The notes under the pieces: generated by a model
Seen by the model: the letters and a program-made list of their open reading frames with translations, nothing else
Told to the model about the DNA's origin: nothing
The model's database searches: none
Shown here: piece by piece, positions 4,552-57,125 of the stretch
Layout of the letters: the number at the start of each line of letters is the position of its first letter
Position numbering within the stretch: the first letter of the stretch is position 1
Program-made: the position numbers and the translations under genes
IMG/VR virus record: IMGVR_UViG_3300034375_013346
Span: 32,001 to 96,000 of that record
Direction: 5' to 3' (one strand)
Length of the DNA: 64,000 nucleotides
DNA from: a virus

Positions 4552-4573
4552 AGCTTCCGTTTTAATCAATTCC

Positions 4574-16723: not shown

Positions 16724-16987
16724 TTATTTAATGGTATCTAGAAATTTATATATCTCCACATAAATTTCATGTTCGCTCAAATCTAAATAATTTAGGTTTA
16801 ATTTTTTCAATGCCCAATCAGTTTTTTTTGAACCAAATTTTTCAAACAGCACTTCACGCTTGATTTGAGCTTCCATTTCAGTGTCCCTGCTATAAGAAAC
16901 ACCAGAGTCTTTTAGAGAAATAATCTTCTCCTCGAACTCTCTCAACCTTTCATAGTCTTCTTTCTTTAATTCGTGGTTTCCTGACAT
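16724..16987 (-). CDS. Hypothetical protein
   Basis: 87 aa overlapping the uvsE end. Confidence 0.65.
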   Translation of the reverse strand: MSGNHELKKEDYERLREFEEKIISLKDSGVSYSRDTEMEAQIKREVLFEKFGSKKTDWALKKLNLNYLDLSEHEIYVEIYKFLDTIK

Positions 16988-24551: not shown

Positions 24552-25160
24552 TTATTTTTTCTCGAAATACCAAGTACCGAACCACTCATCGGTTACAGAT
24601 AGCTGATACCCCATTCTCTCACAGAACTCATCTACTGCAGGATTCACACCAAATACACCACAATACCATTTATGGATATTATCATAAATGTGCTTATCCT
24701 TGCCGTTTGGTAAAAAAGGCCCCTCCTTCCAATTAAGGTCTATATAATCGTGGCCCATTAATATGCCCCCGCTTTTAACTTTGGGATACCAAAGACCAAT
24801 ATCCTCACAAACTGACTTGTAGGTATGGTTAGCATCTATAAAAACAAAATCCAGGCTCTCGTCAGGAAATAGCTTATAGGTCTTATTAGAAAAGTTCCTT
24901 ATCATAGTCGATCTCTCACCAAACTGTTCCATCCTTTCCGCACATTCAGTCATGATTGCGTAGGGTTCAAAAGACCCATGGTTGGATCCATCTGGGTAAT
25001 CCTCGAAATCCAATTCTCTCCAAACATCGATCATGTAGAGATCTCCGTCCCACGTTTTCAATATTTCCTCAGCAAATTCTCCCTTAAAGGAACCAATCTC
25101 AGCTCCTACTTTAAAGCCCCTTTTAACAAAGATCTCTTTTATTAAATCTTCCCTCTTCAT
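24552..25160 (-). CDS. Class I SAM methyltransferase (Methyltransf_24-like)
   Basis: GAEIGSFKG, IDVW, FVFIDANH, GHDY. Confidence 0.85.
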   Translation of the reverse strand: MKREDLIKEIFVKRGFKVGAEIGSFKGEFAEEILKTWDGDLYMIDVWRELDFEDYPDGSNHGSFEPYAIMTECAERMEQFGERSTMIRNFSNKTYKLFPDESLDFVFIDANHTYKSVCEDIGLWYPKVKSGGILMGHDYIDLNWKEGPFLPNGKDKHIYDNIHKWYCGVFGVNPAVDEFCERMGYQLSVTDEWFGTWYFEKK

Positions 25161-36300: not shown

Positions 36301-38214
36301 TCATACATCCTTTATCAGATCGTTATAAAGGTTGGAAATCTCTCTCGGGACTAGCTTTTTAAATTTAGAAAAATCCCTATCTGCTAGGGTTTGTCTAACC
36401 TTAGTCCCTGATGTTCCTCTAGGAGTCTCCTCTAAAGAAAAGCCCGGACCTAGTTTGTCCTTTATATCGGATACCTTTATGTAATCGAGCTGCTTTGAAT
36501 AATCGTCAATTCTATCCTCCCCAGCACCAATCAATTGAGGATCATATCCCATAGAGATAAGTTTTGCAATTCCAGATCCCAAAAGTCCTCTGGTAATCAT
36601 CTCATATCCAGCGATCTCCTCGTTATTCTGAACAACGGAATCCATATATCTTTTAACCGTGGCAGGGTCGAATGGAGATTTGCCAGATTTATTATGTCCT
36701 GGATGAACCACCAAAAGATAAGAAGGGCTACCGTTCTTATCCATCATATATCTAGCCATCTTTAGATGTCCCGAATGGAATGGCTGGAATCTCCCCATAA
36801 TAACATTGATCTTTCTCGACACATCCTCATTATCCTCTCTCACCTCAGAAATTCCCACCTCCTTAGGTGAACTAGTATCGATAGTTTCCAAGGCACTTAT
36901 AAATTCATCATAAGAATGGAAGTGGTCCTCGTCACTATCGGATAAATCGTCTTCCTCCTTTAAATAATTAACCGGTGCTATAAACTCCTTTCTAAACTCA
37001 TTAAAAGAGAAAAATTGAGACTCGTTAACCTTCTTTTTTGGTTTTTTGATGTGTTCCTTTATCTGATTGATGAGAGAATTGAGTTGATCCTTCATCCCTG
37101 GGGTAATGATACCTCCTGCTCTGGTCTTAATTTTTCTGAATGAATTGAGCATTAGCTTAAATAGGGCTTCAAAAGAATCATCCTTCTTAACCAGCTTAAG
37201 AACCCTGCTATCTTTAATCATATCAAGATTCAATCTAAATTCATCTCTTTTAAGATAATCTGGTTCCTCAAAATCAGTACCACTATATTTCTTAGAATAC
37301 AGATCCAAAAACCTCACAAAGACCTCGGACATGAATGAAATATACCTCTCATCGTCAGTTTCACCCTCAACCTCAAATGAATCTATACCCTCCTCGAGAA
37401 TAAAATTCATCACATCCATGATAGTGATTCCCAAAAAATCGCTAGGTTTCTTCGATCTCCTCTCCTGGGCTTTCTGCTTAGCCAGTTCAGTAAAAACCGG
37501 ATCCACCATCTTGGCTAGTACAGTGTCATTTTCCTTATCAGGTTCTCCAAATCTAAAAACTATTCCCTCAACATCCTTATCAAGATCATCATTCAGAGCT
37601 GTCTTAGTAAGACCTGGATTTAGAGTCTTTATTATAAATCGGACAAAACTATTTGTACGGAATTTCTCGACCAACTCCTTGAACGGGGTTTCCATGAATT
37701 CCATCAGTTCCGACTTTTGCTCTTCGTCAAGTCTTCCCTGGAATATAATCGGAGGTTTTTCAACACCCAGGAGATCCGCCCAATTGTTTAATTCGTCCTT
37801 ATCTTGTACGGTTTTCTTGATTTTACCCCCGTCACCCATCTGGTGTACGTAGGAAAGTATCAGATTGTTCTTTGGTATACGATCATACACAATTTCCACT
37901 GGGGATTTATTGGCAAAGTATTCAAGACCAAATCTCCATCCTCTTGGTATTCTCTCTAGGATATGGGGAGGGAGGGACTCTATGTATTGTATAGGCTTCT
38001 CATAATACTTCATGAGGGTCCTATCCACTAAGGTTATTGGATTTCTCTGGTCCCTTCTATAAAACCTGAACTTCCCGCTTTCCCTATCCCTTTCGAAAGA
38101 AAATGCAGACCCGTCCATCTTCTCGTTAATAGTCACAAACTGGTTGAAGAGTTGATTTATAAAATCAGATCCCTTCTTATTGTACATGTCATATAGATGA
38201 TTAATCCCTGCCAT
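36301..38214 (-). CDS. Fusion: ATP-dependent RNA-ligase-like domain plus HIGH-family (cytidylyl/NMN-adenylyl) nucleotidyltransferase
   Basis: Ligase motifs EKMDGS, LEYF, PIIFQG, EGIVFR, AKMV; C-terminal GRFQPFHSGH, GEDR, SGTKVR. Confidence 0.75.
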   Translation of the reverse strand: MAGINHLYDMYNKKGSDFINQLFNQFVTINEKMDGSAFSFERDRESGKFRFYRRDQRNPITLVDRTLMKYYEKPIQYIESLPPHILERIPRGWRFGLEYFANKSPVEIVYDRIPKNNLILSYVHQMGDGGKIKKTVQDKDELNNWADLLGVEKPPIIFQGRLDEEQKSELMEFMETPFKELVEKFRTNSFVRFIIKTLNPGLTKTALNDDLDKDVEGIVFRFGEPDKENDTVLAKMVDPVFTELAKQKAQERRSKKPSDFLGITIMDVMNFILEEGIDSFEVEGETDDERYISFMSEVFVRFLDLYSKKYSGTDFEEPDYLKRDEFRLNLDMIKDSRVLKLVKKDDSFEALFKLMLNSFRKIKTRAGGIITPGMKDQLNSLINQIKEHIKKPKKKVNESQFFSFNEFRKEFIAPVNYLKEEDDLSDSDEDHFHSYDEFISALETIDTSSPKEVGISEVREDNEDVSRKINVIMGRFQPFHSGHLKMARYMMDKNGSPSYLLVVHPGHNKSGKSPFDPATVKRYMDSVVQNNEEIAGYEMITRGLLGSGIAKLISMGYDPQLIGAGEDRIDDYSKQLDYIKVSDIKDKLGPGFSLEETPRGTSGTKVRQTLADRDFSKFKKLVPREISNLYNDLIKDV

Positions 38215-42333: not shown

Positions 42334-43387
42334 CGATAAAATCTATTAGGTCGAGAACCTCGCCAGTGAAATAATTATCGAATCTTCTTATTTTTATTTT
42401 CTTGGCCCTTAGATAATTTACTATATCGTTCAGGTCCCATTTCTTATTTATCGGAAGATCGTGATCAGTCAGAAATTTCTTCCAATTAAAAACACTAAAT
42501 CCCTTGGAAAGGAGCTCAGAATTTTTAGCTCTTCCCGCACGATCCCAGTCATACCAATACCTTATATTCTCCATCTCGAAGGGAAATTTATTCTCGACTG
42601 AACACAAAGCAACCGAATTTTTCCACAACCAGGAATCCATCGGTCCCTCGAATATCGTTATTGTGTGATCAAAAGAAACAGTCCCCACATTAAAAACGCT
42701 GGATACAGGATCTATCTTCCTGGCTTCTTCAAGAAATTCATTGTCGGTAACACCCAACATTTTTTCCCATATCCCGCTGAGTTTATATGTATAGTATTTT
42801 GAACCATAGTTTGAAGACATATTCCTAAACTGAAGACCCAGTATCTCATTATTCCTTGTCAGGTTAAAAAGATATAGCTTCTGGTCCTCTTCGCTCCATG
42901 CAAACTTTTGATCTGGTATTTGGTTTCTTCTTCTAAGATATCTCTCCATCTTGCTACCAGCAACCTCCAACAATCCCATCTTCTCCATGAAAATGGCTCT
43001 AGGAATAACCACCTTGCTAAAATCAGTGTCAAAGAAAAGGGAGATATCCACATCCCCGTATATCTTTCTTCTCTTTTCCTTCCCATTTTGTATGATATCA
43101 AGTATATCAGCTTTCTCTTTTTTTTCAAGTCTCGATACCTCACCAAAATCCCTAAATAATGAGAATGCGTCCTTAAAGATCCCGCATCCTCCGTTGTAAC
43201 ACTTATAGGTTAATGTATCCAAATAGAAGTTACCCCTTTTCTTTCGGTAATTATTACTATCCCCACAATAAGGACAGGAAAAATTGAGCCTATTTCCAGC
43301 CTTGTATATTTTCCTGCGGTTGGGATCGTTAGGAAATCCCTTAATTAATACCCCGCCAATAAGCTCTTCAATTCTCCCTAAATCCAT
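42326..43387 (-). CDS. DNA primase (gp61-like)
   Basis: Zn ribbon CPYCGDS...KCYNGGC, TOPRIM FEGPMDS, DWD, WDLND. Confidence 0.9.
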   Translation of the reverse strand: MDLGRIEELIGGVLIKGFPNDPNRRKIYKAGNRLNFSCPYCGDSNNYRKKRGNFYLDTLTYKCYNGGCGIFKDAFSLFRDFGEVSRLEKKEKADILDIIQNGKEKRRKIYGDVDISLFFDTDFSKVVIPRAIFMEKMGLLEVAGSKMERYLRRRNQIPDQKFAWSEEDQKLYLFNLTRNNEILGLQFRNMSSNYGSKYYTYKLSGIWEKMLGVTDNEFLEEARKIDPVSSVFNVGTVSFDHTITIFEGPMDSWLWKNSVALCSVENKFPFEMENIRYWYDWDRAGRAKNSELLSKGFSVFNWKKFLTDHDLPINKKWDLNDIVNYLRAKKIKIRRFDNYFTGEVLDLIDFIDA

Positions 43388-43404
43388 TTAAAAAAATCTC
43401 TTTG

Positions 43405-43443
43405 AAAAAAAGAGGAACAGCTCCTTTGTGGCTGTTCCTCTTT
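43405..43443 (-). terminator. Rho-independent terminator
   Basis: 10 bp perfect stem GAGGAACAGC/GCTGTTCCTC with T7, after gp32. Confidence 0.88.
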
Positions 43444-43456
43444 AAGTGTTATAACC

Positions 43457-44404
43457 TTATAGGTCAGAGTAAAGATCGTCCAGAGAGGAAGCAGTTTCGG
43501 GGCTTGAAGGCTGCTTCAAAGGCTCTTCTTTGACTGATCCTACCTTAGTGGAAGATACCTCATTGTAGATATCATCCGATGTTTTGGTAGTCGGGGTCGA
43601 TGAAGAGGTCGTAACGTTAGCTCCAGACATCACTTCATTAACCATTCTACCGTCGGGGACGGTATTCTTGATAATGTTCATCACCCTCTCGGTAGTATTA
43701 TCGTCCCAATCTTTGTATTCAAAATTAGCAAGATTATCCGGACCTGTCTTCAGATATTCCAGAATGGTATTCATATCCTCCTTATTCTTATCCATCTTCT
43801 TGCCATCAATTTCTATCGGAGCATTGTTTCCTACAAACTGACATAGATCATAGTTATTCCATTCCCCCACCTTTCTAGAATGAATTGAGAATAGCTTACC
43901 TTCAAAGAGATCGTACGGGTTACATGGATCTCCATACTCGGGCTTAAGCTGAGACTCAAGCATATCATTGATCTTCCTTCCAAATTTGAAAGTCATGATC
44001 TTTCCCTCTAGTTCCGGATTATTCTTATCCTGAACAATCTGAATCAGCGAATAGTAGTCTTCCTTTCTTGAGAAATTCCTTGCCAGATCCTGATCGGCAG
44101 CGGAATTGGAATTCTTAAGCTTCCAAAAAATGTCCTTAAGCACTGATTTTTTACCTACGGTAGAAGGGCAATCTACTGGAAACCCTTCTCCAGTTGCAGG
44201 ATCGTTTAAATACACGTAGTACTTTTGAATTTTGGATTTAGACGGATCTACGTGGTTTGGCAAAAATCTAATCAAAGATTTATAAACCCCGTCTTTTCCA
44301 TTTTCCGGGTATGGCTTGTAAAACTCTAAATCCCTCGAATCCTCTTTCTTGGTCTTCGTTACGAAGTTTTCAACGTCTAAGTTGAAGATGTCTAAATTAC
44401 TCAT
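43457..44404 (-). CDS. Single-stranded DNA binding protein (gp32-like)
   Basis: LIRFLP, CPST.G, DKNNPELEGK..FKFG.KI, PYDLFEG, NYD, acidic tail LDDLYSDL. Confidence 0.9.
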   Translation of the reverse strand: MSNLDIFNLDVENFVTKTKKEDSRDLEFYKPYPENGKDGVYKSLIRFLPNHVDPSKSKIQKYYVYLNDPATGEGFPVDCPSTVGKKSVLKDIFWKLKNSNSAADQDLARNFSRKEDYYSLIQIVQDKNNPELEGKIMTFKFGRKINDMLESQLKPEYGDPCNPYDLFEGKLFSIHSRKVGEWNNYDLCQFVGNNAPIEIDGKKMDKNKEDMNTILEYLKTGPDNLANFEYKDWDDNTTERVMNIIKNTVPDGRMVNEVMSGANVTTSSSTPTTKTSDDIYNEVSSTKVGSVKEEPLKQPSSPETASSLDDLYSDL

Positions 44405-44445
44405 TGTTCCTTTAATTTTGTTTTTTAAAATCCTTTATTTAATCT

Positions 44446-45231
44446 CTAAGTGTCCCAAAAGTTTCCCCTAGATTGTATATATCCCGAACTTTTTTTCATA
44501 TTGTTACTCCTATTTACCTCCTTGTGAGATAGCATATTCCCTCGGAGAGAAACTTGTAGATCACTCCTTATTATTTTATATCCGGATATAAGCAAATGGT
44601 TTCTTAATAGGGTTTCAGGGTGGAAAAAAACAGAATCTCTAGAAAGATAGTTTTCTATGCTTCTATACAATCCACAGTAGTGAGACATAGGATTTCTACC
44701 CCCATATGCTATTACATCGTTAATTCCACCCCTCCAATCAAACCCATGCGGAATATTTATTACTGACTTGTCAGGGTCGAAAAAAAGATCGTTATGGATC
44801 TTTATATCGAATCTACCTTTTATAACATAGTCATATTTCTTTCCCACGGAGCTCTCGTATTTTTCCATGAGGGAATATGAGGAGTCTATTTTATACCACA
44901 TACAGAATACCGACTGCGGGTTCATTTCACCATTCATCGGAGAATACTCATCATATAAGTTTGATCTTTCGAGGATTCTTGTTATGGAATCAGAATCAAA
45001 ATCCTCGGATAGCATCAGTTTGGGCTTATACATGGAGATAATATCACCAACCGAGAGACTATCACTAAGATTAGACGTATCTGCTTGTACTGTAGAATTT
45101 ATATGATCCGAAGGATTCCAGCACGAGATAAAAACATCGGGTGAATACACATCGAGTATTCTGCTCTTTATATATGGATAACATTCAAGGCCCTCTCTAA
45201 ATTGACCAGAAAGAAGTAAAGCAACCCTCAT
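44446..45231 (-). CDS. Putative glycosyltransferase (MKIALxxSGxxR-type)
   Basis: MRVALLLSGQFR, DVFISCW, MWYKI, YDYVIKGRFD, INDVIAYG, HPETLL. Confidence 0.65.
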   Translation of the reverse strand: MRVALLLSGQFREGLECYPYIKSRILDVYSPDVFISCWNPSDHINSTVQADTSNLSDSLSVGDIISMYKPKLMLSEDFDSDSITRILERSNLYDEYSPMNGEMNPQSVFCMWYKIDSSYSLMEKYESSVGKKYDYVIKGRFDIKIHNDLFFDPDKSVINIPHGFDWRGGINDVIAYGGRNPMSHYCGLYRSIENYLSRDSVFFHPETLLRNHLLISGYKIIRSDLQVSLRGNMLSHKEVNRSNNMKKSSGYIQSRGNFWDT

Positions 45232-45671
45232 TGATACCTTTCTATATAGTCACTACAGACACCCATACACAGGGAGATATCCTCCCCGTGGATCTCGGGC
45301 ATAACAGCTATGCTTCCTTCTATAGGTTGGTTACCAACAAGAGCCCATCTATATCCTTTGCTAGTAAAGACAACATCATCAGAATCATGCATAAAATAGT
45401 TCAGCACGTTCCCCTTAGGATCCATAACGGAAAGTTCCCTGAAGGAAGGGATATTCTTGCAGTGTATCCAAAGCTTTTCGGAGTGTTCAACCAAGAAGGA
45501 GTACTGTGTGTCATACTGCGGTCTATCATGGCCAAGTTTAAAAAGCCCATCAACAAACCATAAATCTATCTCAACGTCATATTTTTCCATTGCTTTCAAA
45601 ATATAATCAGTCGAGTTTTCCCTCTCAGGAGATGACCCGTTTACATTACCCCGGTGAGATATAAGTATCAT
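45228..45671 (-). CDS. Small GDPD-like phosphodiesterase
   Basis: ISHRGN, ENS, DVEID, LGHD, WIHCKN, GVCSD. Confidence 0.75.
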   Translation of the reverse strand: MILISHRGNVNGSSPERENSTDYILKAMEKYDVEIDLWFVDGLFKLGHDRPQYDTQYSFLVEHSEKLWIHCKNIPSFRELSVMDPKGNVLNYFMHDSDDVVFTSKGYRWALVGNQPIEGSIAVMPEIHGEDISLCMGVCSDYIERYQ

Positions 45672-45674
45672 CAA

Positions 45675-46868
45675 TTATTTAGGATTTCCAAACTTACCAA
45701 CAGCTTCCCTGAATTCTTTACCAACAATTCCATCTATTGCCTGCCTCATTGCTATGGCTCCACTTTTAGTCCCACTAGGGTGACCGTGCATAGCCCCACC
45801 TACATTAGCTAGATAATCTACGCCAACCTGCTCGTTTATATTGTTAACTAGACCAGGATGAAATCCGCAGCTTAGAGCAGGAAGGGTTCCTTGTTTTCTT
45901 GACTCCTCCATCGCTTTTAAAACTTCTTCCTCATCAGCAGGATAATATCCGCCAATCATACCAGAGTGTATAAAATCAACACCCATCATTCCTGCCAGTT
46001 TACACATGAAGGGCCAGGATATACTAAAATTGTGATCCGGGTTCGTTATAACCCGATCCCCGCTCTTTTGGAAGTGCATGAATATGGGAAGATCCAATTC
46101 CCTGATATTTTTATAAGACCCGAGACCACACCAAAAATTGACATGCACCCCATTGCCACCTAATTCATGAACCTGCTTTACCCTTTCCAGTATATAAGCT
46201 GGATCCGAATGTATGGAAACACAATAGACAACCCTTTTATCTTTCAGGTAATCCATTATAAGAGGAACCCTATCCTCTATCCTGCAAAAAGAGGGGCTTG
46301 ATAGTATTTCATCCTCTTTGATAAAATTCACACCACCTTCAACCATCTCTTTTACCATCTCAAGCATTATCCTAGGGGAAACTCCGGTCTTAGGTTTTAA
46401 TATACCGCCGAGTAAAGGTTTATCATATACCCCAGTGTATTCGCGGATACCATTTATTCCGTACTTGGGCCCTAGAAAACATTCCGAAACACAATCAGGG
46501 AATTCAATATCCAATAATTTGCAAGATTTGATCTCTTCAATATCCATCTGTCCACCCATCACATTTACCAAGAGGTGAGATACACCATCTGTTCTAAAAT
46601 CTATATTTACAACAGGGAATGCAATTATAACCTCCCCAGAGGTGCTATCCAGCATGCTTTCCATATCTCCTACTATGATACAGGAGTGATCCCGAAACAG
46701 CTCCTCAGTTTCCCATACGCTCCTGGAAGACGGGTTACCTACACTCTGTCCTATCGCTATATTCCAAGCAGCAGATGCCAGATTTTTGGAACATTCAACA
46801 TAGTATTTAGCAAAGAAATAATTCTCGCTATCTATTTGTTCCTTTAATTTAAATAAATCAGATTTCAT
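45675..46868 (-). CDS. RuBisCO-like protein (form IV)
   Basis: GPKYG..GIR, LLGGILKPKTG, FIKEDE, DFIHSG, SCGFHPG, GGAMHGHP; several carboxylase residues replaced. Confidence 0.92.
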   Translation of the reverse strand: MKSDLFKLKEQIDSENYFFAKYYVECSKNLASAAWNIAIGQSVGNPSSRSVWETEELFRDHSCIIVGDMESMLDSTSGEVIIAFPVVNIDFRTDGVSHLLVNVMGGQMDIEEIKSCKLLDIEFPDCVSECFLGPKYGINGIREYTGVYDKPLLGGILKPKTGVSPRIMLEMVKEMVEGGVNFIKEDEILSSPSFCRIEDRVPLIMDYLKDKRVVYCVSIHSDPAYILERVKQVHELGGNGVHVNFWCGLGSYKNIRELDLPIFMHFQKSGDRVITNPDHNFSISWPFMCKLAGMMGVDFIHSGMIGGYYPADEEEVLKAMEESRKQGTLPALSCGFHPGLVNNINEQVGVDYLANVGGAMHGHPSGTKSGAIAMRQAIDGIVGKEFREAVGKFGNPK

Positions 46869-47178
46869 ATTTATCTCCCGGTTTAGAGGGTGTCTTAACT
46901 ATAAAAACCTCGCAATCCTCGAGGAAAACTGGATTAGCTATCTCATATCTCCGTATGACAAAAACGTCACCAGATTCGAGGACTCTATCCTGTATAATCA
47001 TTCTACCCTTATGTAAGTAATTTATTTCGTCCGCTTCCTTATGGTAATGTGCTGTCCATTCCTCTCCCTTTTTATGTTCCTTAAAGCAGACCTCAAATTT
47101 ATCGGTTTCATAAGATGAAGGTAAGAAATCACCAACAAACCAACCTCCCTTATATTCTTCTATTCTAGATACTTCCAT
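46858..47178 (-). CDS. Cupin-fold protein
   Basis: GGWFVGDF, HYHKEADEIN, VKTPS. Confidence 0.8.
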   Translation of the reverse strand: MEVSRIEEYKGGWFVGDFLPSSYETDKFEVCFKEHKKGEEWTAHYHKEADEINYLHKGRMIIQDRVLESGDVFVIRRYEIANPVFLEDCEVFIVKTPSKPGDKYEI

Positions 47179-47911
47179 ATCTTACTTTATTTTTGTATAT
47201 CTCCAAATCCTCCGGCGTCCCTATCGGGAAATGAAGGTTAAAAAAATATGGCAATATTTTCTTACCCCTTTTTATAAGATAGTTGTATGTTGGGGCAACA
47301 TAAAACTCATTGTTATATCGATCATTATTGTCGATCATCTCAAGGGCAGATTCAACAAAATCTGAACCCCTCTCCCAGTAATGTAGCCCGTTAGTGGCTA
47401 TATTCGAAATAACTATCTTTTCCTTGACATCACAAACTTCTCCATTAGGGTCAAGCTTGACATAGCTATTTTTTTTAGACGAGGAAAGGAAGCATCCTAT
47501 AAATCCATCACAATTGGTATTAGAAGCGAACTTGGCTAAAATACCCAGATTAAAATCCAGTATTACCTGGTCACAATTCGCTATAATAAGTGGATTTTTA
47601 GTGTTAATAAGGTCTTTCGCAAGGAGTGCGGTACAAGCTGGGCCCTCAGTTAATGCTGGAGTAGAAACGACATCAAAAGAGATTCCAGTATCACCTATAT
47701 GTTCCCTGAATTCATCGATAGAAATATGCTCCTCATTGATGACAAATATGAAGTGTGAAGACCCGTCTCTGAGGTTATCGATTACTGTCCTTATCATGGA
47801 ATCATCTATAACTTTGATGTAGGGTTTTATCTCACTGTATCCAGCATCAGAAAACCTTCTTCCCATTCCCCCCAGAGGTATCAATATGTTAATCTTCTTT
47901 GAGTCTCTCAT
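47165..47911 (-). CDS. Sugar-phosphate nucleotidyltransferase-like protein (GT-A, BcbE-like)
   Basis: IPLGGMGRRF..GY..KP.I, TEGPACT, NCDQ, VKEK..IS..ATNG, NNEFYVAP, IGTPED. Confidence 0.85.
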   Translation of the reverse strand: MRDSKKINILIPLGGMGRRFSDAGYSEIKPYIKVIDDSMIRTVIDNLRDGSSHFIFVINEEHISIDEFREHIGDTGISFDVVSTPALTEGPACTALLAKDLINTKNPLIIANCDQVILDFNLGILAKFASNTNCDGFIGCFLSSSKKNSYVKLDPNGEVCDVKEKIVISNIATNGLHYWERGSDFVESALEMIDNNDRYNNEFYVAPTYNYLIKRGKKILPYFFNLHFPIGTPEDLEIYKNKVRYGSI

Positions 47912-48557
47912 CTAAAAACAGACATATCCAGGTGGCATCAATAATATCATCCAATGGCTTATTCACGTTCCCACTGGGGGTTATCCATTCACCCTTATTA
48001 TCATTTAGTATATTAGTGAAATAGCTCAGGTTGGTTTCAACGATTTCGGTATTAATCAGTGCCTCATACAATTGATCCTTTTTGGCATTCCCCTTAATCG
48101 CAAATTTTTTAACAGAGGTTGGGGAGAAAACGAAAAAATTTGAGCTTCCTACGAAATCTACTATCTTTTTCCGGAGCAAGGCAGTTGCCATTGATATGTC
48201 TATAAGTGCATTGCCATTAGAAGCAAAGCTTAAGCCCTCTATAGCTATAAACACATCATCTCCAGGCTCAATGTGGTTCTTAACAGAGTCCCAGAATTTT
48301 TCCACCAGATCCGAAAAATAATCAATTTTTATCCTCTCTCTTTCAGTGTATTCATCAGGCATTTTCTCCTTGCCCATGAACACAAGATCAAATTCATCAA
48401 TATCCGAAAAGAAAGCAAATGGCTTATTTTTAGACTTTTTCAAGGATTCCTCAGATCTGTCACTCCTTGTAAGTGATCCCCATCTAAAATGATTATCTCT
48501 AAACGAACAAAATGCTGGGGAATTCAATGAGAAATCTATTCCTATAAGGGTTCTCAA
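47889..48557 (-). CDS. RuvC-like Holliday junction resolvase
   Basis: IGIDFSLNSP, IEG, PTSVKK..GNAKK, DDIIDA; TTG start. Confidence 0.82.
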   Translation of the reverse strand: MRTLIGIDFSLNSPAFCSFRDNHFRWGSLTRSDRSEESLKKSKNKPFAFFSDIDEFDLVFMGKEKMPDEYTERERIKIDYFSDLVEKFWDSVKNHIEPGDDVFIAIEGLSFASNGNALIDISMATALLRKKIVDFVGSSNFFVFSPTSVKKFAIKGNAKKDQLYEALINTEIVETNLSYFTNILNDNKGEWITPSGNVNKPLDDIIDATWICLFLDERLKED

Positions 48558-48582
48558 AATAGTTTTATTTAAAAGTTCACTC

Positions 48583-48590
48583 TATATATC
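48583..48590 (-). promoter_or_regulatory. GATATATA late-promoter-like motif heading the resolvase-RLP-gp32 unit
   Basis: 26 nt upstream of the resolvase start, immediately after a terminator; same motif recurs before about 15 genes. Confidence 0.65.
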
Positions 48591-48595
48591 ACCAC

Positions 48596-48621
48596 AAAAA
48601 ACCCCGGGATTCCGGGGTTTT
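48596..48621 (-). terminator. Rho-independent terminator
   Basis: CCCCGG-loop-CCGGGG with T6. Confidence 0.85.
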
Positions 48622-48643
48622 AGATAATTAGGTTTTTTGGTGA

Positions 48644-49009
48644 TTAGACCTTTACTAATCTCTTAGTGACTAGTCCTGGGATCTCAATTTCTTTCTCCCC
48701 TTTACCAACAGCTTGTTCTATCTTGCCTACTATTTCCTTATCTATGGAGCTTTCAAGCTCTGTAGGCTCCGTGATTTTTACCTTCAGATTTTCCCCCGAC
48801 GGGTTTAATTCAACAATCTGAACCCTGTTCCATTTTTTACCAAATGGATTTAGATAATTCCCGGGATTAAAATTAGCCTCCAGCTGATACTCCTCACCAT
48901 TCAAAACGATGTTTCCCTTGCTGTTTTTCTTGACCTCCAGTTTCTCGTTGATCTGTATAGAGGAATTTCCTCGATCTTTAAAAGATTCGTAAGTTAAGAG
49001 GGATTCCAT
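48644..49009 (-). CDS. Hypothetical protein with CTS-like N-terminus
   Basis: MESLLTYESF...INEK. Confidence 0.7.
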   Translation of the reverse strand: MESLLTYESFKDRGNSSIQINEKLEVKKNSKGNIVLNGEEYQLEANFNPGNYLNPFGKKWNRVQIVELNPSGENLKVKITEPTELESSIDKEIVGKIEQAVGKGEKEIEIPGLVTKRLVKV

Positions 49010-49011
49010 AA

Positions 49012-49260
49012 TTAATCTAGAGATGGTTTTACCACGTTGCCCTTCTTGCCCGTGTAGTTATAAACATTAACAAGCTTGTCGTAGCATTTTTTCATCTGGT
49101 CGTCACTTAAGCAATCCACCAGGTCGTTCAATACCCTTTGATCGTTACCTGAAGCAGCTACTAATAGATCCTTCATATGCTGTTTTAGGTCATCCTCCCC
49201 ATACATGGGCTGACCATATTTCATTTCATTTAACTGAGTTAGTTCAGAGAATTTTTTCAT
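49012..49260 (-). CDS. Hypothetical protein with CTS-like N-terminus
   Basis: MKKFSELTQLNEM; GATATATA at 49282-49289. Confidence 0.7.
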   Translation of the reverse strand: MKKFSELTQLNEMKYGQPMYGEDDLKQHMKDLLVAASGNDQRVLNDLVDCLSDDQMKKCYDKLVNVYNYTGKKGNVVKPSLD

Positions 49261-49289
49261 TTTCTTTGCTTTTTTCTGTTTTATATATC

Positions 49290-49850
49290 TTACTTCTCCC
49301 TACCAATTTCTAGAGATATGTCCAAATAATTACATTTAAACCCTACAGAGAATGTATAAACCGAGGGAGCATTCTGGGTATAATTGAGATTTAGATTATT
49401 CATCGAAGTCAATGTCACCTCCTTAAAGGTAACAGTGGTAACTATATTCCCGTCATTGTCCAATATTCTTAGCGGGAGATTCTGAATGAAAACTTGTGGA
49501 TTTTTAAAGTTTAACTTGTCCAGTACAGTTTCCAACATAATGAAGTAGTTTATGAAACCCTCGGATATACGGAAAGAAACATCAAATTCCCTGCTGAATA
49601 GATCCTGAACAGGTGTTGCACTCTGGTAGTTTATCCTTTTGCCAAGATTCCTCGTCTGCTCCACCAGGTCCATCTGTAATCCTGGAAATCCTACCGACTG
49701 TATAGAACTATTCATGAACGAGGTTATTGTATCGTAGGGGGTAGGCTGCCTCTTGATATAATCAAGATACTTCTCTTGGACAACATCTGGGAAAAATCCT
49801 CTAGGAAAAACAAAATAAAAGCTATTAGCCCTTGCGTTTAACATGCTCAT
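49290..49850 (-). CDS. Tail tube-fold protein (gp3/gp19-like)
   Basis: IQSVGFPG, FDVSF...NY, LRILD..GN, TF.V.F pattern typical of tube-fold proteins. Confidence 0.6.
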   Translation of the reverse strand: MSMLNARANSFYFVFPRGFFPDVVQEKYLDYIKRQPTPYDTITSFMNSSIQSVGFPGLQMDLVEQTRNLGKRINYQSATPVQDLFSREFDVSFRISEGFINYFIMLETVLDKLNFKNPQVFIQNLPLRILDNDGNIVTTVTFKEVTLTSMNNLNLNYTQNAPSVYTFSVGFKCNYLDISLEIGREK

Positions 49851-50370: not shown

Positions 50371-52827
50371 TTAGCTTCTTCCGCCCGGATCTGGATCGAT
50401 AATCACATCCTTTGGGTTAGGCAGTGAAGACCCGTTATCACTCCCCGATTGATTCGCAGTACCCCCATTGGAACTAGCAGATCCACCAGTGGTTCTGCCT
50501 GCACCGGTGTTGCCATAAGCAAACACTAAGGACATATCTCCACTTCCGAATATACCCTGAACCGCCTGTATGAACAACTCTTTTGTAATTCCAACATAGA
50601 GCTTATACCCAGTAGAACTAGGATCCAGGAAGTAAGAAATTATCTCAGGCGTAGACCACCCAGTAGCTACCTTTCCTTGTACGTCGGAGGAGATGGCAGA
50701 TTTCAGCTGGGCTTGACTTAGTTTTTGCTGACTACTGTTGCTTCCACCCTTGCTAACCTTTCCATTACCACTCGTTCCCAAGTTTCCGCTCTGAATACCC
50801 GAGACCTGCCAGGAACTTTTTCCAGGCTTGTTCGGTGGAGCTTTAAATACAGGAGAAGTCGGGAGAACCTTAACGTCAGCTTCTACTTTGGCCTGTACCG
50901 GAATTTGCTCATCATCTTTTAACCAGTTTCCCCAGTATAGAGTAGAGAAAGAATTACCCCCTATTTTAGCTGTATTTACTGCTCTGCTAGTATTGGAGTC
51001 TTTCTTGGAAGCAAGTATAATATTTCTAGAAGAATCTCTTAGACTAACAGCTCTCTTTGCTAATAGGGACTTAGTTTTATTAACCTTTGAAATCCCCCGG
51101 GTATCAGTATTGTCCCCATCAGGATCTGGTGGTTTATTGGTGATATAGAACTTTCTGTTTGTAAACTGAAGTATCTGGTTAGATATGGACTCATCCACTT
51201 TAAAAGCTAATTCACCCTTAGAAGGTTTTGCTATATTGGCATCAGCAATAGAAGGGGCATATACCTTCTTATCCATATTATTTATGAATACCATATTGTA
51301 GGTACCAGAGGAGCTAAGATCTATCTCCTGTGTTGTACCATCTGGTCCCTTTCTAAAGAATGAAAACTTATAATAGTTATCAAAAGGACTGACCCTAATA
51401 TATGCCTTCCCTATCCCGTAAGAAATAGAAGGGGCACTCGAATTGCTTCTCTCCGTAATATTAGTTCCATTAACATCTAGATTAGTCAATGATGTATTCA
51501 CCAAATTTCTATCAACGAATACATTAGCAAACTTGGTAATTTCTCTAGGTGACATTTGATTAAAAGGAACGGATATATCTGTTTTTCCGGCTAGTTTATT
51601 GTATATCTTTTGCTGTTGCGGCAAAACTGAAAGTTGAAGCGGGGTAATTGTAGAACCATACTTACCCGGATCTGTCGATGTATATGTAGCTACCCTCATA
51701 ATTCTGGTCTGATCCTTGCTATTTATAAGGGTCATAGTATATCTCAATGAGAAGCTTGTAGCCACATTGGAATATCTAACTATTGGTCTAAAAAGATTCG
51801 GAACGTCATATGCAGATGTCTGGATGCTTGTAAAGTTAGAGGTTTCCAGCCAAGCAGCACCAACCTGCTCAAGAACCTCTATCCTATTTTCTATGTAATA
51901 GCTATTGCCTATTGAATTCTGAAACAGTATAAAATCCTCAATAAACCCGCCATCATCCGTACCAAAATATTCAAAGAAATCTCCGGTATCAGCTGGGGAG
52001 ATATAGGCACCTATGTTATTGAACGGATCAGTGGGTTCCAGAGATAATGCTGCCAAAAGCTGAGTCCCGTATGTTTCATATCCGCTAACTACGGAGGTAT
52101 CTGTGATCGAATATGCATTTACCCTTAGAGGTTGGGCAGCTAAAAATCCTCTTCCGCTCTTAGAGGTTTTAGCAGCAAGCGTGAGAGGCTTGTTTGATGG
52201 ACTAGCTGCGTTATACTTATTGATCATATCTGAGAGAGAAGGTATCTTCACCTCAAAATACTTATCATATATGTTAGCCCCTATGGTTAAAGGATTAGGG
52301 TTTAGTGTGTATTGCTGTGAATTACCCTTCGAAAGCTTTATCTGGGAAAAAGTCACATAAGAACCATCAACATCCGGGTACTTGACATTAAGGATTAGTC
52401 CGTCCAGATTGTCCAGGTTATATCCGGCGAGTATATGATATCTCACGGAGTCATAAACAACATTAAGATTTGATGAGAACGATATAGGTAGGTTTGCCGT
52501 ATCAGTCAGCTCAGATTTAAAATCATTGTAAGGTACTATCAGGTTCGGATTAAGGGTTACGAAGGTGGTAAGATTGGTCTGTACAACGCTATTATTAGAG
52601 GTATTCTGTGTTATTGATGCATTTTCATCCAGATTAAAAATCTGAACATCATTAGAAACCTGTCCATCGGAGTCCTTGAGAATCCCATTCACAAGTCTAT
52701 TATAACCCACTGTAGGACTACCGACATTGACAAAGTAATCCTCAGGATTTGGAGGACTTGCATACATATACTCCATAACCAGATATGGAGAGAGTTGTAC
52801 GTATTTAGATGTCGTTGTAAAAGCCAT
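50371..52827 (-). CDS. Putative structural (baseplate/tail) protein
   Basis: 818 aa S/T/N-rich beta protein in the structural block. Confidence 0.6.
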   Translation of the reverse strand: MAFTTTSKYVQLSPYLVMEYMYASPPNPEDYFVNVGSPTVGYNRLVNGILKDSDGQVSNDVQIFNLDENASITQNTSNNSVVQTNLTTFVTLNPNLIVPYNDFKSELTDTANLPISFSSNLNVVYDSVRYHILAGYNLDNLDGLILNVKYPDVDGSYVTFSQIKLSKGNSQQYTLNPNPLTIGANIYDKYFEVKIPSLSDMINKYNAASPSNKPLTLAAKTSKSGRGFLAAQPLRVNAYSITDTSVVSGYETYGTQLLAALSLEPTDPFNNIGAYISPADTGDFFEYFGTDDGGFIEDFILFQNSIGNSYYIENRIEVLEQVGAAWLETSNFTSIQTSAYDVPNLFRPIVRYSNVATSFSLRYTMTLINSKDQTRIMRVATYTSTDPGKYGSTITPLQLSVLPQQQKIYNKLAGKTDISVPFNQMSPREITKFANVFVDRNLVNTSLTNLDVNGTNITERSNSSAPSISYGIGKAYIRVSPFDNYYKFSFFRKGPDGTTQEIDLSSSGTYNMVFINNMDKKVYAPSIADANIAKPSKGELAFKVDESISNQILQFTNRKFYITNKPPDPDGDNTDTRGISKVNKTKSLLAKRAVSLRDSSRNIILASKKDSNTSRAVNTAKIGGNSFSTLYWGNWLKDDEQIPVQAKVEADVKVLPTSPVFKAPPNKPGKSSWQVSGIQSGNLGTSGNGKVSKGGSNSSQQKLSQAQLKSAISSDVQGKVATGWSTPEIISYFLDPSSTGYKLYVGITKELFIQAVQGIFGSGDMSLVFAYGNTGAGRTTGGSASSNGGTANQSGSDNGSSLPNPKDVIIDPDPGGRS

Positions 52828-53894: not shown

Positions 53895-55583
53895 TTAAAT
53901 AGCCACTCCACCGCCGCCGCCAGGAACAAATATCTCAGCACCACTAATCTGAAGCCATCCGGCAGCGACATTCTCGGAATCAGCCCAAGCTTCGTAAAAA
54001 CAAGAATTATTTCCTGATATGAAAGTCAATCTTATCCTTTTACAGCCTTTCTTCAGCGGATTAATTCCATCAGCGTAGTTGTCCGGGATTGAAATATAAG
54101 CCTTATTCAGAGTTCCTGCTGATATTGCCCTTATACCACCAAATGATCTATTGGCATCATTTACCAGATATTCAATGGTCCTGTATTTTCCAGTCGTGTA
54201 ATTAATCCAGGAGTAGCTGCTACCTATACTGAGGTAAAACCTACCTTTCCTCCCATCCGCAAATATCAAAGAAGGAGAAGTGGCTATTGCTGCTGGTTCT
54301 ATGACTACCACATCTTCATTAGCAGCCACCGAAACATAATGGTAAGACTGACCGGAAAGGGTAAATGTCTGAGTGAAGGGGCTCGTAACAAGCTGGGTAT
54401 ATCTAGTTAGGGTTCCACCAGTAATACCAGAAGCTCCAGTTCGGGATCCAATCTGAAAAGCGTCTCCCATGGATCTTACCATGAAAGACTGCTCCCTGCT
54501 ATGGCCAACCTGCGGAATGGTACCATCACCGCCTACTGCTATACCTCTACCTCCAGTGGTCCCAGCAAGGTAAGCTTGCGTCAAGTCAGCAACAGCATTA
54601 TATGGGGTTCCTGATAAATTAACACTTATACCCTTACTGTGGTTGGTATTGTATCCTCTAAAGGCTTGATAGATTGAGCCGTAAAAAGGTATCAGATTTC
54701 TGTTACTAAAAGCAATATCAGGAGTAAGTCCGGAGTTTCCGCTAAAGCTCAGAGAAAACTCTGCAGAATTTGTTCTTAGATTTGACGATTCAATGTTTAC
54801 ATTTCCTGAGAATGCATAGAGCTGTAAGTTAGTTCCAGTAGCACCAAGTTCAATAGAGCCAGAAGATTTTACATTTAGCAAATTGTTGCTCTGGGCGGTC
54901 ACATTAGACCCAGTTGATCCAATGGACACCGAGCTACCTGCATATCTACTAAGATTCGGATTCTTCCATACCAGGGAATAGTCAGAACTAGACGATGACG
55001 CCCAGTAAAAACCCGCTATATTACTTCTATCAGCAAATGGCTTATCCATACCGAAGATTGGGGATGAAGAATTAGCAGTAGAAATAAGAAGTTTAGCAAA
55101 ATTAGGATTAATATCCCCGGTGGTACCCTCCGAATCGGAAATAACCATGTATTTGTCTCCCGGAGATGAATTTATGACTACCGCATTATCTTCCACAGAT
55201 CCAGCGGGACCAGATATTTCAGTCAAGGTACCAAAAATACCCGTGGTTTGTATAGTTTCTCCGGTGTAAACCCAATCAGTTGTATATTGGTAAACCTTCT
55301 GTCCTCCCGTAATTCCCAGGTTTATCCAGATATCACCAGCCTGTGATATGACAGCAGATGGTTGATCTGGCGAGAAGTACCAATTTGCTGCTCTATCCCC
55401 GGTAGAACCTTGGGATCCATCTTCACCGGCTTGACCTATAATACCAGTAGCACCTATGGCTCCATCTGGTCCCATTTCACCTACTCCATTGAAATAAACT
55501 TGATTGAAATTCTGGTTTAGCTTGGACAACAAAACGTCTTTAGAATCTCCAGGTAAGATATATTTCGTATTAAATTGAGACAT
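53895..55583 (-). CDS. Tail fibre-like protein with short collagen segment
   Basis: KLNQNF, Gly-X-Y repeats, GDIW; paralogous to 55602-57125. Confidence 0.7.
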   Translation of the reverse strand: MSQFNTKYILPGDSKDVLLSKLNQNFNQVYFNGVGEMGPDGAIGATGIIGQAGEDGSQGSTGDRAANWYFSPDQPSAVISQAGDIWINLGITGGQKVYQYTTDWVYTGETIQTTGIFGTLTEISGPAGSVEDNAVVINSSPGDKYMVISDSEGTTGDINPNFAKLLISTANSSSPIFGMDKPFADRSNIAGFYWASSSSSDYSLVWKNPNLSRYAGSSVSIGSTGSNVTAQSNNLLNVKSSGSIELGATGTNLQLYAFSGNVNIESSNLRTNSAEFSLSFSGNSGLTPDIAFSNRNLIPFYGSIYQAFRGYNTNHSKGISVNLSGTPYNAVADLTQAYLAGTTGGRGIAVGGDGTIPQVGHSREQSFMVRSMGDAFQIGSRTGASGITGGTLTRYTQLVTSPFTQTFTLSGQSYHYVSVAANEDVVVIEPAAIATSPSLIFADGRKGRFYLSIGSSYSWINYTTGKYRTIEYLVNDANRSFGGIRAISAGTLNKAYISIPDNYADGINPLKKGCKRIRLTFISGNNSCFYEAWADSENVAAGWLQISGAEIFVPGGGGGVAI

Positions 55584-55601: not shown

Positions 55602-57125
55602 TTATGTTACAGAGATAATTCCAGCGTCCCCCTGGTCGTTATTATAGAATATGGACAGATCAGAAGAAGTGGTACCTCTATAAAGAACCAGATCAACATA
55701 GACCGCTCCTGAGCTGAAAGCCACGCTATCAAAATTAATACCACTTGCCCCTGGGTTTTGCCCTGACACAGACCCAGATTTAACTACATAAAGGCCGTTT
55801 ATTTTCTGAGCACCTGTACCTGGATATACAATTCTAAGCTGCATGGCTGTATCGGGATTAAGATAATCACCCCAAGAGTCAGTGAGTCCGGCGGCATTAA
55901 AAACCAGATATGCAACAGACCCAGTACCAGGGTTGAGGTCAACCTGCAAGAAGTTACCATTGTTTGCTCTGGTATAACCTATGAGCCACTGGTTATTTGT
56001 TCCTCCTCCTCCGGCACTACCATAAGCATTACCAGAATTTCCAGTAAATGTGGATGTTCCCTGTATCATTTTACTCCCCTCTATTCTTCCATCCGCTCTT
56101 ACTCCGAAGTATCTTGTTCCTGAAACCTTAAGATCCAATAAGTAAGAGGTGGTAGAAGTGGTATAGACATCAACAAATAAGCCACCGCCAACGGTGCCCG
56201 TGCTGGTGTTAATTATCTCCATAACATAATTATTAGAAGGTGCATTAACCGTTACTGGACAATTAGTTACAAGATTACCAAGTCCTATGTAGAGGTTACT
56301 GGAATTAACAGTAAACACGCTCGCCTCACCGAAGATACTACCATTAGTGGATTGAAACTTCATAATCGATCCCGAAGTGAAAGTTGTGGAACCAGCGGAC
56401 GTGATGTTTAGATCTCCATTGGTACTCAAGAGATCCAGGGATCCTCCTGACTGGAGGGTAAGGGAATCTTGAGGAACCGTGAATAATAAATCATATGTTG
56501 TTCCTACTGGTGTTAACCATCTAAATTGCGGATGTCGATTATAATCTGCTGGGGTTCCGATACCGGATGCATTGGTTTTAGCAAATTCAACCAGAGGATA
56601 ATCATTAGCACCGTTTGTCGAAATAAGAAGCTTAGAATAAGTAGGATTTGCAGTGGTAGTTGTGGATATGGAATCGCTCAGAACCATCGTAGTTTTATCG
56701 GGGAATGGCGTACTAAAAACTATCGCATCTTTATTTCCAGTTGGTCCTGATATACCCTCTACTAGCTTAAATGATTCCTGAGCCTTTAGGGTTTCCCCCG
56801 TATCAACCCAGCCAGAACTACTATATTGGAAAATCTTATTATCCTGTAGAGGATCCGCCCAATAGTCGCCGACAATTATAGGGTCTGATACTCCACCAAG
56901 AGGCTCAGTACTTTGAATAAACCATTTCGTTCCCCTAGTTCCTTGTTGCCCAGGATCTCCCTTAGGACCAGCAGCACCCACAGGACCCTGAGGACCAGTT
57001 TTACCTCTGATACCTTGAGGTCCACCTCCATTGGAGACTATGGAATCGAAGTTGTTATTAACCTTCCTAATTATATCTTCCTGTGAATCTCCCTGGTTAA
57101 GGTTCGATATATTCAAATTCGGCAT
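55602..57125 (-). CDS. Tail fibre-like protein with short collagen segment
   Basis: KVNNNF, GPQGIRGKTGPQGPVGAAGPKGDPGQQGTRG, GDYW; AATATATA at 57146-57153. Confidence 0.72.
   Translation of the reverse strand: MPNLNISNLNQGDSQEDIIRKVNNNFDSIVSNGGGPQGIRGKTGPQGPVGAAGPKGDPGQQGTRGTKWFIQSTEPLGGVSDPIIVGDYWADPLQDNKIFQYSSSGWVDTGETLKAQESFKLVEGISGPTGNKDAIVFSTPFPDKTTMVLSDSISTTTTANPTYSKLLISTNGANDYPLVEFAKTNASGIGTPADYNRHPQFRWLTPVGTTYDLLFTVPQDSLTLQSGGSLDLLSTNGDLNITSAGSTTFTSGSIMKFQSTNGSIFGEASVFTVNSSNLYIGLGNLVTNCPVTVNAPSNNYVMEIINTSTGTVGGGLFVDVYTTSTTSYLLDLKVSGTRYFGVRADGRIEGSKMIQGTSTFTGNSGNAYGSAGGGGTNNQWLIGYTRANNGNFLQVDLNPGTGSVAYLVFNAAGLTDSWGDYLNPDTAMQLRIVYPGTGAQKINGLYVVKSGSVSGQNPGASGINFDSVAFSSGAVYVDLVLYRGTTSSDLSIFYNNDQGDAGIISVT

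Follow-up and report, generated by a model that had tools for sequence, protein, structure and literature searches.

What does a large marine phage do with a relative of RuBisCO? The question is raised by a stretch of viral DNA of 64,000 nt, here called the window, which comprises bases 32001-96000 of the 114.6-kb IMG/VR virus record IMGVR_UViG_3300034375_013346 (CheckV completeness ~42%). A RuBisCO-like protein (RLP) is encoded there in a cassette of five co-directional minus-strand open reading frames (ORFs) at 44446-47911, which overlap or abut one another as a tight operon. Its partners are a sugar-phosphate nucleotidyltransferase (NTase), a small cupin, a miniature GDPD-type phosphodiesterase (mini-GDPD), and a putative transferase resembling the GT-A fold. 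These five identities had been proposed in a reading made from the sequence alone. The coordinates were confirmed, and the identities hold by Pfam for the NTase and the RLP, by motif for the cupin, and, as probable assignments, by motif or fold for the mini-GDPD and the transferase. To our knowledge, all characterized enzymes of the RuBisCO superfamily begin by enolizing a keto-sugar phosphate at a Mg2+/carbamate center, and every characterized RLP works in salvage or catabolism.

The cassette is a real, conserved, and intact module of undescribed biochemistry within nucleotide-sugar and glycan pathways. It probably serves a biosynthetic purpose, building and using a nucleotide-activated sugar (or sugar-like) phosphate for a glycan. 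A biosynthetic use of the RuBisCO fold would be the first, and it would belong to an RLP clade that is wired to an NTase in glycan clusters. The sequence-only reading had named the cassette its best candidate for an undescribed pathway. Literature searches turned up no paper in which an RLP is tied to nucleotide sugars, to capsules, or to glycan genes of viruses. Phage RLPs as such had already been published as a "form IV-like" group shared with Beckwithbacteria and found in many environments, with no function or gene context given (Jaffe, Castelle, Dupont, and Banfield 2018, bioRxiv 10.1101/386292). What is new is that the NTase and mini-GDPD constitute a wider module, and that within this module the RLP and a HAD domain are nearly mutually exclusive.

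The RLP has an enolization core without carboxylase residues

The RLP is an unambiguous homolog of the RuBisCO large chain (PF00016, E 2.5e-34, 119.3 bits with a cut-off of 30.1), and its N-terminal domain scores slightly under the family threshold (PF02788, 18.5 bits, cut-off 20.7). It matches 99 RuBisCO and RLP sequences in the PDB, the best at 1.8e-38, and is roughly equidistant from form III and MtnW proteins (about 1e-36). All curated NCBIfam equivalog cut-offs lie far above its scores (bits/cut-off of 185/497 for rubisco_III, 155/409 for PRK09549, 127/514 for TIGR03332, and 138/700 for OiaX).

Active-site positions, given in spinach numbering, were read by motif from an alignment to form I and II references. 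The residues K175, K177, K201, D203, E204, S379, G381, G403, and G404 are retained, as is H327 according to the PDB alignment. The substitutions N123G, H294Q, R295K, H298D, K334Y, and G380C are invariant across the clade, and the full set of catalytic and ribulose-bisphosphate-binding residues that marks bona fide RuBisCO (forms I-III) is not present. This combination of retained and changed residues indicates a carbamyl-lysine/Mg2+ enolization core and a P1 phosphate cradle, without the carboxylase residues and the P2 site. Judged by these residues, the RLP is predicted to be a Mg-dependent enolizing isomerase rather than a carboxylase, and it would fix no CO2.

The loss of carboxylase residues is the single feature that would suit an inactive or decaying acquired gene. 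Against such decay, the reading frame is intact, and in a clade alignment of 20 members at 59-86% pairwise identity the mean column identity is 77% and the active-site motifs are invariant. Metagenomes also hold thousands of RLP homologs. A protein search returned 2617 (E <= 0.001), and the 120 best-scoring of them that were listed are 61-99% identical to the window RLP. We consider decay exceedingly improbable. Among the closest metagenome homologs, P0002 is located on a 185-kb contig.

The relationships of the RLP were examined in a tree of 55 sequences (12 phage, 17 cellular, 3 fusion proteins, and 23 references), made by a quick search under LG+G4. The references came from Alphaproteobacteria only and were labeled by their best NCBIfam hit, below cut-off; the set had no MtnW, IV-Photo, or form III references. 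Phage and cellular RLPs form one clade (SH-aLRT 100) on a stem of 1.04 substitutions per site, apart from the OiaX-like and DeepYkrW-like groups (each SH-aLRT 100) and from the bona fide RuBisCO groups. Because a Beckwithbacteria sequence (L025, 53% identity) falls inside this 32-row clade, the clade can be tied to the "IV-like" group of Jaffe et al., whose own sequences were not in the tree. Both descriptions concern divergent RLPs without carboxylase residues that are carried on large myovirus-type phage contigs and shared with Beckwithbacteria. The present clade differs in that it also extends to SAR11, Verrucomicrobiota, Planctomycetota, Saccharibacteria, and Woesearchaeota, and in its ties to an NTase, a cupin, and a mini-GDPD.

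These data bear on whether the RLP could be an auxiliary gene for salvage or catabolism that recycles host metabolites during infection, either in the manner of the Rhodospirillum/Rhodopseudomonas MTA-isoprenoid shunt or through acid-sugar catabolism. An RLP isomerase followed by a cupin methylsulfurylase is the known pairing of that shunt (PMC5893883, PMC4958253), and the phage RLP has nonzero bit scores against the models for MtnW and OiaX. However, the PRK09549 and OiaX scores given above are far under their cut-offs, and the tree separates the clade from the DeepYkrW-like and OiaX-like references. OiaX-like references have S or N at K177 and DeepYkrW-like references carry K177Q and E204H, whereas the phage RLP keeps both K177 and E204 and, unlike these groups, has Gly at N123. 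The RLP is therefore placed outside the MtnW, DeepYkrW, and OiaX groups, for MtnW by score, given that the tree held no MtnW reference. The sequence-only reading had also noted the lack of salvage or catabolic partners, and none is present in the flanks, which encode a RuvC-like protein, gp32, primase, and helicase. Likewise, no gene of the IF-2B/MtnA family was found elsewhere in the 114-kb record. Finally, the constant partner of the RLP is an NTase, an enzyme without a place in such pathways. A salvage or catabolic function is accordingly very unlikely, and its methionine-salvage version was rejected on the basis of the NCBIfam scores, the tree, and the absence of an MtnA-family gene from the record.

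The nearest model for the chemistry we propose is nonetheless the R. rubrum RLP (5-methylthio-D-ribulose-1-phosphate 1,3-isomerase), an enolizing isomerase that acts on a ketose monophosphate and is followed by a cupin enzyme. The phage RLP differs in belonging to another clade, in keeping K177 and E204, in carrying N123G, and in having no MtnA/MtnP partners. Moreover, the enzyme that would act after the phage RLP is a nucleotidyltransferase, which implies an anabolic pathway, unlike salvage in R. rubrum.

A nucleotidyltransferase is the hub of the module

RLP-seeded loci were drawn from IMG/VR (15 loci) and from species-representative genomes (20 loci), and 34 loci have an RLP when the window is counted. 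In 32 of these 34 an NTase adjoins the RLP. A mini-GDPD occurs in about 27, a cupin in 22, an NAD epimerase/dehydratase in 12, and a DUF7796 protein in 11. Gene order varies among the loci, and RLP, NTase, and cupin can even be a single polypeptide (P0312 and P0313, metagenomic proteins of 813 and 817 aa). The recurrence of the same genes in 34 loci, in varied order and sometimes fused, argues that their clustering is not due to chance. The earlier expectation that the five genes would co-occur in other genomes is thus borne out by these loci and fusions, but not as one fixed unit, because the GT-A gene is found in only about a third of RLP loci.

In other phages, the neighbors of the cassette include GT1, GT2, and GT7 glycosyltransferases, NAD epimerases/dehydratases, UDP-glucose dehydrogenase, and CmcI/FkbM methyltransferases. 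Cellular carriers comprise a complete Pelagibacter chromosome, SAR11 single-cell genomes, Patescibacteria, Beckwithbacteria, Saccharibacteria, a Verrucomicrobiae chromosome, Planctomycetota, and Woesearchaeota. In the complete Pelagibacter genome, the RLP set is located 1.3 kb from the 23S rRNA gene and adjoins a GT9 glycosyltransferase, a CMP-sugar-synthetase-like gene, a 2-hydroxyacid dehydrogenase, and a second, HAD-fused type of NTase. The hypervariable region HVR2, which lies between the 23S and 5S genes, holds cell-surface and lipopolysaccharide genes (PMC2217521). The Pelagibacter RLP set sits in this region.

The RLP clade is not rare: besides large marine phages, SAR11 carries it, in its hypervariable region for the cell surface. 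SAR11 is the most abundant marine bacterium, and surface glycans decide phage adsorption. Since the neighbors of the RLP are genes for nucleotide-sugar and glycan synthesis, a biosynthetic role in which it feeds the NTase is the best reading of these contexts. The sequence-only reading had made the same proposal, with a ketose, branched-sugar, or polyol phosphate as putative product and phage DNA, the virion, or the host surface as putative target. It gains partial support from the gene contexts and the NTase partner.

The NTase itself belongs to PF00483 (38.9 bits, cut-off 21.2, E 9.5e-10) and to phrog_3980 (1.3e-54), and it matches an uncharacterized Vibrio nucleoside-diphosphate-sugar pyrophosphorylase (PDB 4evw, 6e-13). 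An alignment of 17 relatives keeps the motifs G-x-G-x-R-F, K-P, C-D-Q, and E-K. In sugar-1-phosphate nucleotidyltransferases such as RmlA and GalU, these motifs serve for the nucleotide and the sugar phosphate. Found beside the RLP in nearly all RLP loci and beside the mini-GDPD in most mini-GDPD loci, the NTase is the hub of the module. A prediction of the RLP-NTase complex scored 0.00, which gives no verdict and weighs neither way.

The cupin has an invariant motif 1 (H44-x-H46-x4-E51-x6-G58) and a further invariant residue, H35, and no His was seen at motif 2. It matches Pfam Cupin_2 weakly (17 bits, under the cut-off of 27.2) and phrog_24762 clearly (1.2e-28). The weak relatives found with its profile in the PDB are a quercetinase cupin (3.8e-6), Cupin_2 proteins, a 113-aa mannose-6-phosphate isomerase (7zvm), and KdgF. 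An IspD/IspF-type reading was also tried, in which the NTase and mini-GDPD would be IspD- and IspF-like and 1-deoxy-D-xylulose 5-phosphate (DXP) would be supplied by the RLP and cupin. It was rejected, given that the NTase has motifs of the sugar-1-phosphate type and the mini-GDPD is GDPD-like.

A putative compressed phosphodiesterase and a GT-A-like protein

Neither the mini-GDPD nor the GT-A-like protein has a Pfam hit. Across 87 sequences of the mini-GDPD, there is no variation in the motifs H-R-G-N, E-N, E-x-D, G-H-D, H-x-K, and H..D. Its profile matches a Pyrococcus GDPD in the PDB (7e0v, 1e-4) over the first 55 residues only, and its homologs fall into 2938 cluster representatives. Its AlphaFold2 (AF2) model has a pLDDT of 98. 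In a VIA wide search, 141 of its 148 residues aligned to the GDPD 1vd6 (Z 10.4, rmsd 3.3), and the top 22 rows all belonged to the GDPD/PLD superfamily, including the teichoic-acid enzyme GlpQ and the C-terminal domain of phage K gp155. Z scores were 8.6-10.4 when 1vd6, 1o1z, 5t91, and 9f49 are considered, and a Foldseek search with the same model gave no row below E 1e-3.

As modeled, the mini-GDPD is a compressed GDPD barrel whose catalytic residues are intact and which is about 40% shorter than known GDPDs. It resembles that family (PF03009), which includes GlpQ and the phage K domain, in its catalytic His/Arg/Glu/Asp motifs and predicted barrel fold. It differs in its size (148 aa vs 220-330 aa) and in being fused to glycan-modifying domains rather than secreted or virion-borne. 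The fusions found elsewhere are to DUF7796 (P0251), WavE, GT61, CmcI-like methyltransferase, and sulfotransferase domains.

The GT-A-like protein yielded an AF2 model with a pLDDT of 87, for which Foldseek matched GT6/GT8 glycosyltransferases (4ayl at 2.8e-7, and glycogenin) with a probability of 1.0. Its homologs pass or come close to the cut-off of PF25072, DUF7796 (27.5 bits vs 27), and its Atlas neighbors are labeled DUF7796, capsular polysaccharide biosynthesis, or glycosyltransferase. Residues Y133-D134 and R140-x-D142 are invariant. A profile search of the PDB from its alignment gave chance-level matches only. In the Atlas, it also resembles a portion of a Campylobacterota "capsular biosynthesis protein" of 626 aa (DUF8374), as well as proteins from Nucleocytoviricota.

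The RLP and cupin appear to replace a HAD domain

When the module is approached from the mini-GDPD instead of the RLP, a broader picture emerges. A mini-GDPD profile scan of viral contigs gave 591 confirmed stretches, of which the best 80 were kept. Where 4 kb or more was available on both flanks (58 loci), an NTase adjoins the mini-GDPD in 52 cases, but an RLP is present in only 13. In RLP-less loci, as neighbor clustering revealed, the NTase usually forms part of a 455-aa protein that carries a HAD_2 domain at its N terminus. This HAD-NTase fusion occurs in 55 of 67 RLP-less loci versus 2 of 13 loci with an RLP (Fisher p = 7e-6, a value that overstates the independence of the observations, since the loci are interrelated). 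Examples are found at L097:4235-5602, at 54 other loci among L072-L151, and at L018:770-2140 in Pelagibacter HVR2. Among the 35 RLP-seeded loci, the fusion is confined to Pelagibacter, which has two NTase genes. The cupin is present in 11 of 13 RLP loci and 17 of 67 RLP-less loci, and so is enriched with the RLP without being confined to it.

The NTase and mini-GDPD are thus a common core, and they define a phage module that is wider and more common than the RLP cassette. HAD-NTase modules, known from other phages and Pelagibacter, share with the window cassette the NTase family (about 40% identity), the mini-GDPD, and a glycan-cluster context. They differ in having a HAD domain where the window phage has an RLP and cupin. 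The near-exclusivity of the two arrangements suggests that the RLP and cupin form an alternative front end, from which the NTase would receive its substrate. This refines the sequence-only reading: a widespread NTase and mini-GDPD core carries the RLP and cupin as an optional front end in place of the HAD domain. The nearest solved relatives of the HAD domain are beta-phosphoglucomutases and sugar-phosphate phosphatases. The near-exclusive exchange offers a testable hypothesis on what the RLP supplies, and comparison of the two module types provides a route to the substrate.

A proposed pathway

What the data show is the identity of the genes, the conservation of their catalytic cores, their co-occurrence and fusion, and their genomic settings. 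From these we infer an order of steps, a chemistry, a product, and a target. The RLP would enolize a keto-sugar monophosphate at its Mg2+/carbamyl-lysine center and, as in characterized RLPs, move a carbonyl or invert a stereocenter by proton transfer. The metal cupin, where present, would add an isomerization of the aldose-ketose type. Together the two may convert a common host ketose phosphate to an unusual phosphate ester that the NTase could activate by joining a nucleoside monophosphate to the phosphorylated substrate. In most related phages, the NTase instead has the beta-phosphoglucomutase-like HAD domain fused to it, which would take the place of the RLP and cupin.

The GT-A/DUF7796 protein and the mini-GDPD would act on the glycan at a stage of transfer or editing, where the mini-GDPD might make, trim, or edit a phosphodiester. 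This role is suggested by its constant pairing with the NTase, by its fusions to glycan-modifying domains, and by its kinship with teichoic-acid phosphodiesterases. Most likely the glycan is part of the infected-cell envelope or the virion, which is favored by the cellular contexts and by those with multiple glycosyltransferases.

A precedent for an NTase-like protein in ketose decoration comes from a bacterial capsule, as the sequence-only reading had pointed out. In the type B capsule of Pasteurella multocida, genetic evidence shows that the fructose branch requires BcbE, an uncharacterized NTase-like capsule protein, as well as BcbG (PMC13552107). By description, the BcbE/BcbF/BcbG system resembles the cassette in its NTase-like protein, which in the capsule is needed for a ketose branch on the polysaccharide. 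The one sequence link is PDB 4evw, the only direct hit of the phage NTase, together with a common CDD group. They differ in that no RLP is reported among the P. multocida type B capsule genes.

A more specific scheme can be put forward as a speculation, one we hold to be rather doubtful. In it, the RLP and cupin would together yield a sugar 1-phosphate without a mutase. Starting from a common ketose omega-phosphate, the RLP would shift the carbonyl along the chain as far as the neighbor of the phosphorylated carbon, by the type of 1,3-proton transfer carried out by the R. rubrum RLP but run in the opposite sense. The metal cupin, functionally like MtnA, would then isomerize the resulting ketose-1-phosphate to an aldose-1-phosphate. 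The phosphate, never having moved, would end on the anomeric carbon of a rare sugar, mimicking the net effect of a phosphomutase, and the NTase would follow with activation. Such a carbonyl walk would account for the exchange of the RLP and cupin with a beta-phosphoglucomutase-like HAD domain, although SAR11 loci, in which the cupin is missing, weaken the case for it. If true, it would be the first anabolic, glycan-building role in the RuBisCO superfamily, and one abundant in ocean phages and SAR11. An equally open alternative is that the NTase directly activates a ketose omega-phosphate. The pneumococcal CDP-xylulose/CDP-arabinitol route is a direct activation of this kind.

Observations against the glycan reading, and possible other products

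Several observations weigh against the assignment of the cassette to glycan synthesis. The co-occurrence counts were drawn from related loci that are not independent. Membership of the transferase in the GT-A group derives from a moderate fold match (TM about 0.44) and lacks the canonical DXD. About a third of RLP loci, including those of SAR11, are missing the cupin, which consequently cannot be an obligatory step. An orphan RLP (L017:8001-9191), sister to the Verrucomicrobiae copy, has no NTase within 8 kb and is flanked by genes for arginase, ornithine cyclodeaminase, and an amino-acid permease. In the Verrucomicrobiae locus itself (L033), RLP, NTase, and cupin adjoin a fatty-acid desaturase, with no glycan genes nearby. 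Lastly, the cassette of the window is surrounded by DNA-replication genes rather than by a glycan island.

The Verrucomicrobiae locus, with no glycosyltransferases in its vicinity, and the existence of RLP-NTase-cupin polypeptides would suit a role in which these three activities alone make a soluble nucleotide-linked metabolite (cofactor-like, signaling, or protective), the transferases elsewhere being incidental. Most loci are nevertheless glycan clusters, and the NTase is almost always paired with a mini-GDPD, which is itself fused to glycan-modifying domains. A soluble product is therefore improbable.

The position of the cassette raises another alternative, in which the GT-A protein attaches the activated sugar to bases of the phage DNA and thereby evades host restriction. 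The cassette lies inside a replication module, between the RuvC-like gene and the gp32, primase, and helicase genes, not only in the window phage but also in its close relatives (L001 and L027). The main hint at DNA hypermodification is a gene for DUF1599, "nucleotide modification associated domain 1," which is present near the NTase/mini-GDPD module in 12 of the 80 phage loci (e.g., L104:4962-5324). This gene is absent from the 114-kb record, about 42% complete, as is any thymidylate-synthase-like hydroxymethylase. Furthermore, cellular genomes also carry the RLP-NTase(-GDPD) core, in regions for the cell surface of which Pelagibacter HVR2 is an example; most phage loci lie amid several glycosyltransferases, epimerases, and O-methyltransferases, as fits a polysaccharide; and two-thirds of RLP loci are without the GT-A gene. 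For the window phage, its cassette position keeps DNA modification in consideration, and overall we judge it unlikely. Synthesis of an envelope or virion glycan is still the reading that we favor.

The cassette in its phage setting

The window is phage DNA, as indicated by genes for a gp32 single-stranded-DNA-binding protein, primase, helicase, RuvC-like resolvase, topoisomerase II subunits, ribonucleotide reductase, UvdE, and tail-fiber proteins, and nearly all of its genes are on the minus strand. Coordinates of the cassette and its flanks are collected in Table 1.

Table 1. The five cassette genes and the two flanking genes, in window coordinates
Feature	Position	Strand	Support
Sugar-phosphate nucleotidyltransferase (NTase), stand-alone form, 248 aa	47165-47911	-	PF00483
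Small single-domain cupin, 106 aa, predicted metal site	46858-47178	-	Cupin motif 1
RuBisCO-like protein (RLP), 397 aa, "IV-like" clade	45675-46868	-	PF00016
Miniature GDPD-type phosphodiesterase (mini-GDPD, g148), 147-148 aa	45228-45674	-	Motifs and predicted fold
Putative transferase, GT-A-fold, DUF7796-like (g261), 261 aa	44446-45231	-	Fold match; homologs DUF7796
RuvC-like resolvase, upstream flank, outside pathway	47889-48557	-	phrog_159, 8.2e-15
gp32-type ssDNA-binding protein, downstream flank, outside pathway	43457-44404	-	PF08804, 4.1e-12; phrog_224, 3e-35

The RuvC-like gene overlaps the start of the NTase gene by 23 nt. Within the cassette, the overlaps are 14 nt (NTase/cupin), 11 nt (cupin/RLP), and 4 nt (mini-GDPD/GT-A-like gene), and the mini-GDPD likely starts at an ATG at 45671, 3 nt past the TAA stop codon of the RLP. 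On the downstream side, the primase and helicase genes come after the gp32-type gene. A consensus scan for promoters and terminators across 43300-49300 found no excess of sites over shuffled sequence, and operon boundaries are therefore not defined by it.

No cultured phage can be used as a model for the cassette, because neither blastn of the cassette nor tblastn of the RLP gave a match among the INPHARED cultured phages. A protein identical to the GT-A-like protein (P0121) is recorded on 20 contigs, the longest of 349 kb, and the complete phage may thus be a jumbo phage of about 350 kb. A contig from a Saprospirales metagenome-assembled-genome bin (L027, CALAZP010000190.1) is syntenic with the window at 49-86% protein identity over a stretch that runs from the 818-aa gene to the helicase and takes in RuvC, the cassette, gp32, and primase. 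It represents a related phage, which is either mis-binned or hints at a Bacteroidota host.

Other genes of the window were also noted. Between the topoisomerase and ribonucleotide reductase genes lie a GT2 glycosyltransferase with TPR repeats, a Methyltransf_24 methyltransferase, an adenylate kinase, and a DUF2452 protein (21471-22754, 24552-25160, 23899-24540, and 23505-23918, all on the minus strand). The GT2 and methyltransferase genes show that more genes of glycan type are scattered across the DNA-metabolism region. The methyltransferase (24552-25160) was considered as a partner of the cassette and rejected, its match to the cassette-linked methyltransferase of locus L003 being at chance level (E 0.004, 50 residues).

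The remaining features include an aminotransferase (phrog_3139, 1353-2540, minus) and a protein of 637 aa whose C-terminal domain is cytidylyltransferase-like (phrog_3041/395, 36301-38214, minus). The 818-aa (50371-52827) and 562-aa (53895-55583) ORFs have no PHROG match. An ORF of 1841 aa (57170-62695, minus) matches phrog_31887, which has no annotated function, and is adjoined by a tail-fiber-like protein at 55602-57125 (minus). The UvdE UV-damage endonuclease is encoded at 16966-17919 (minus), and a phrog_850 protein, which carries the PHROG label "RNA-binding protein" (3.6e-156), at 3103-4569 (minus).

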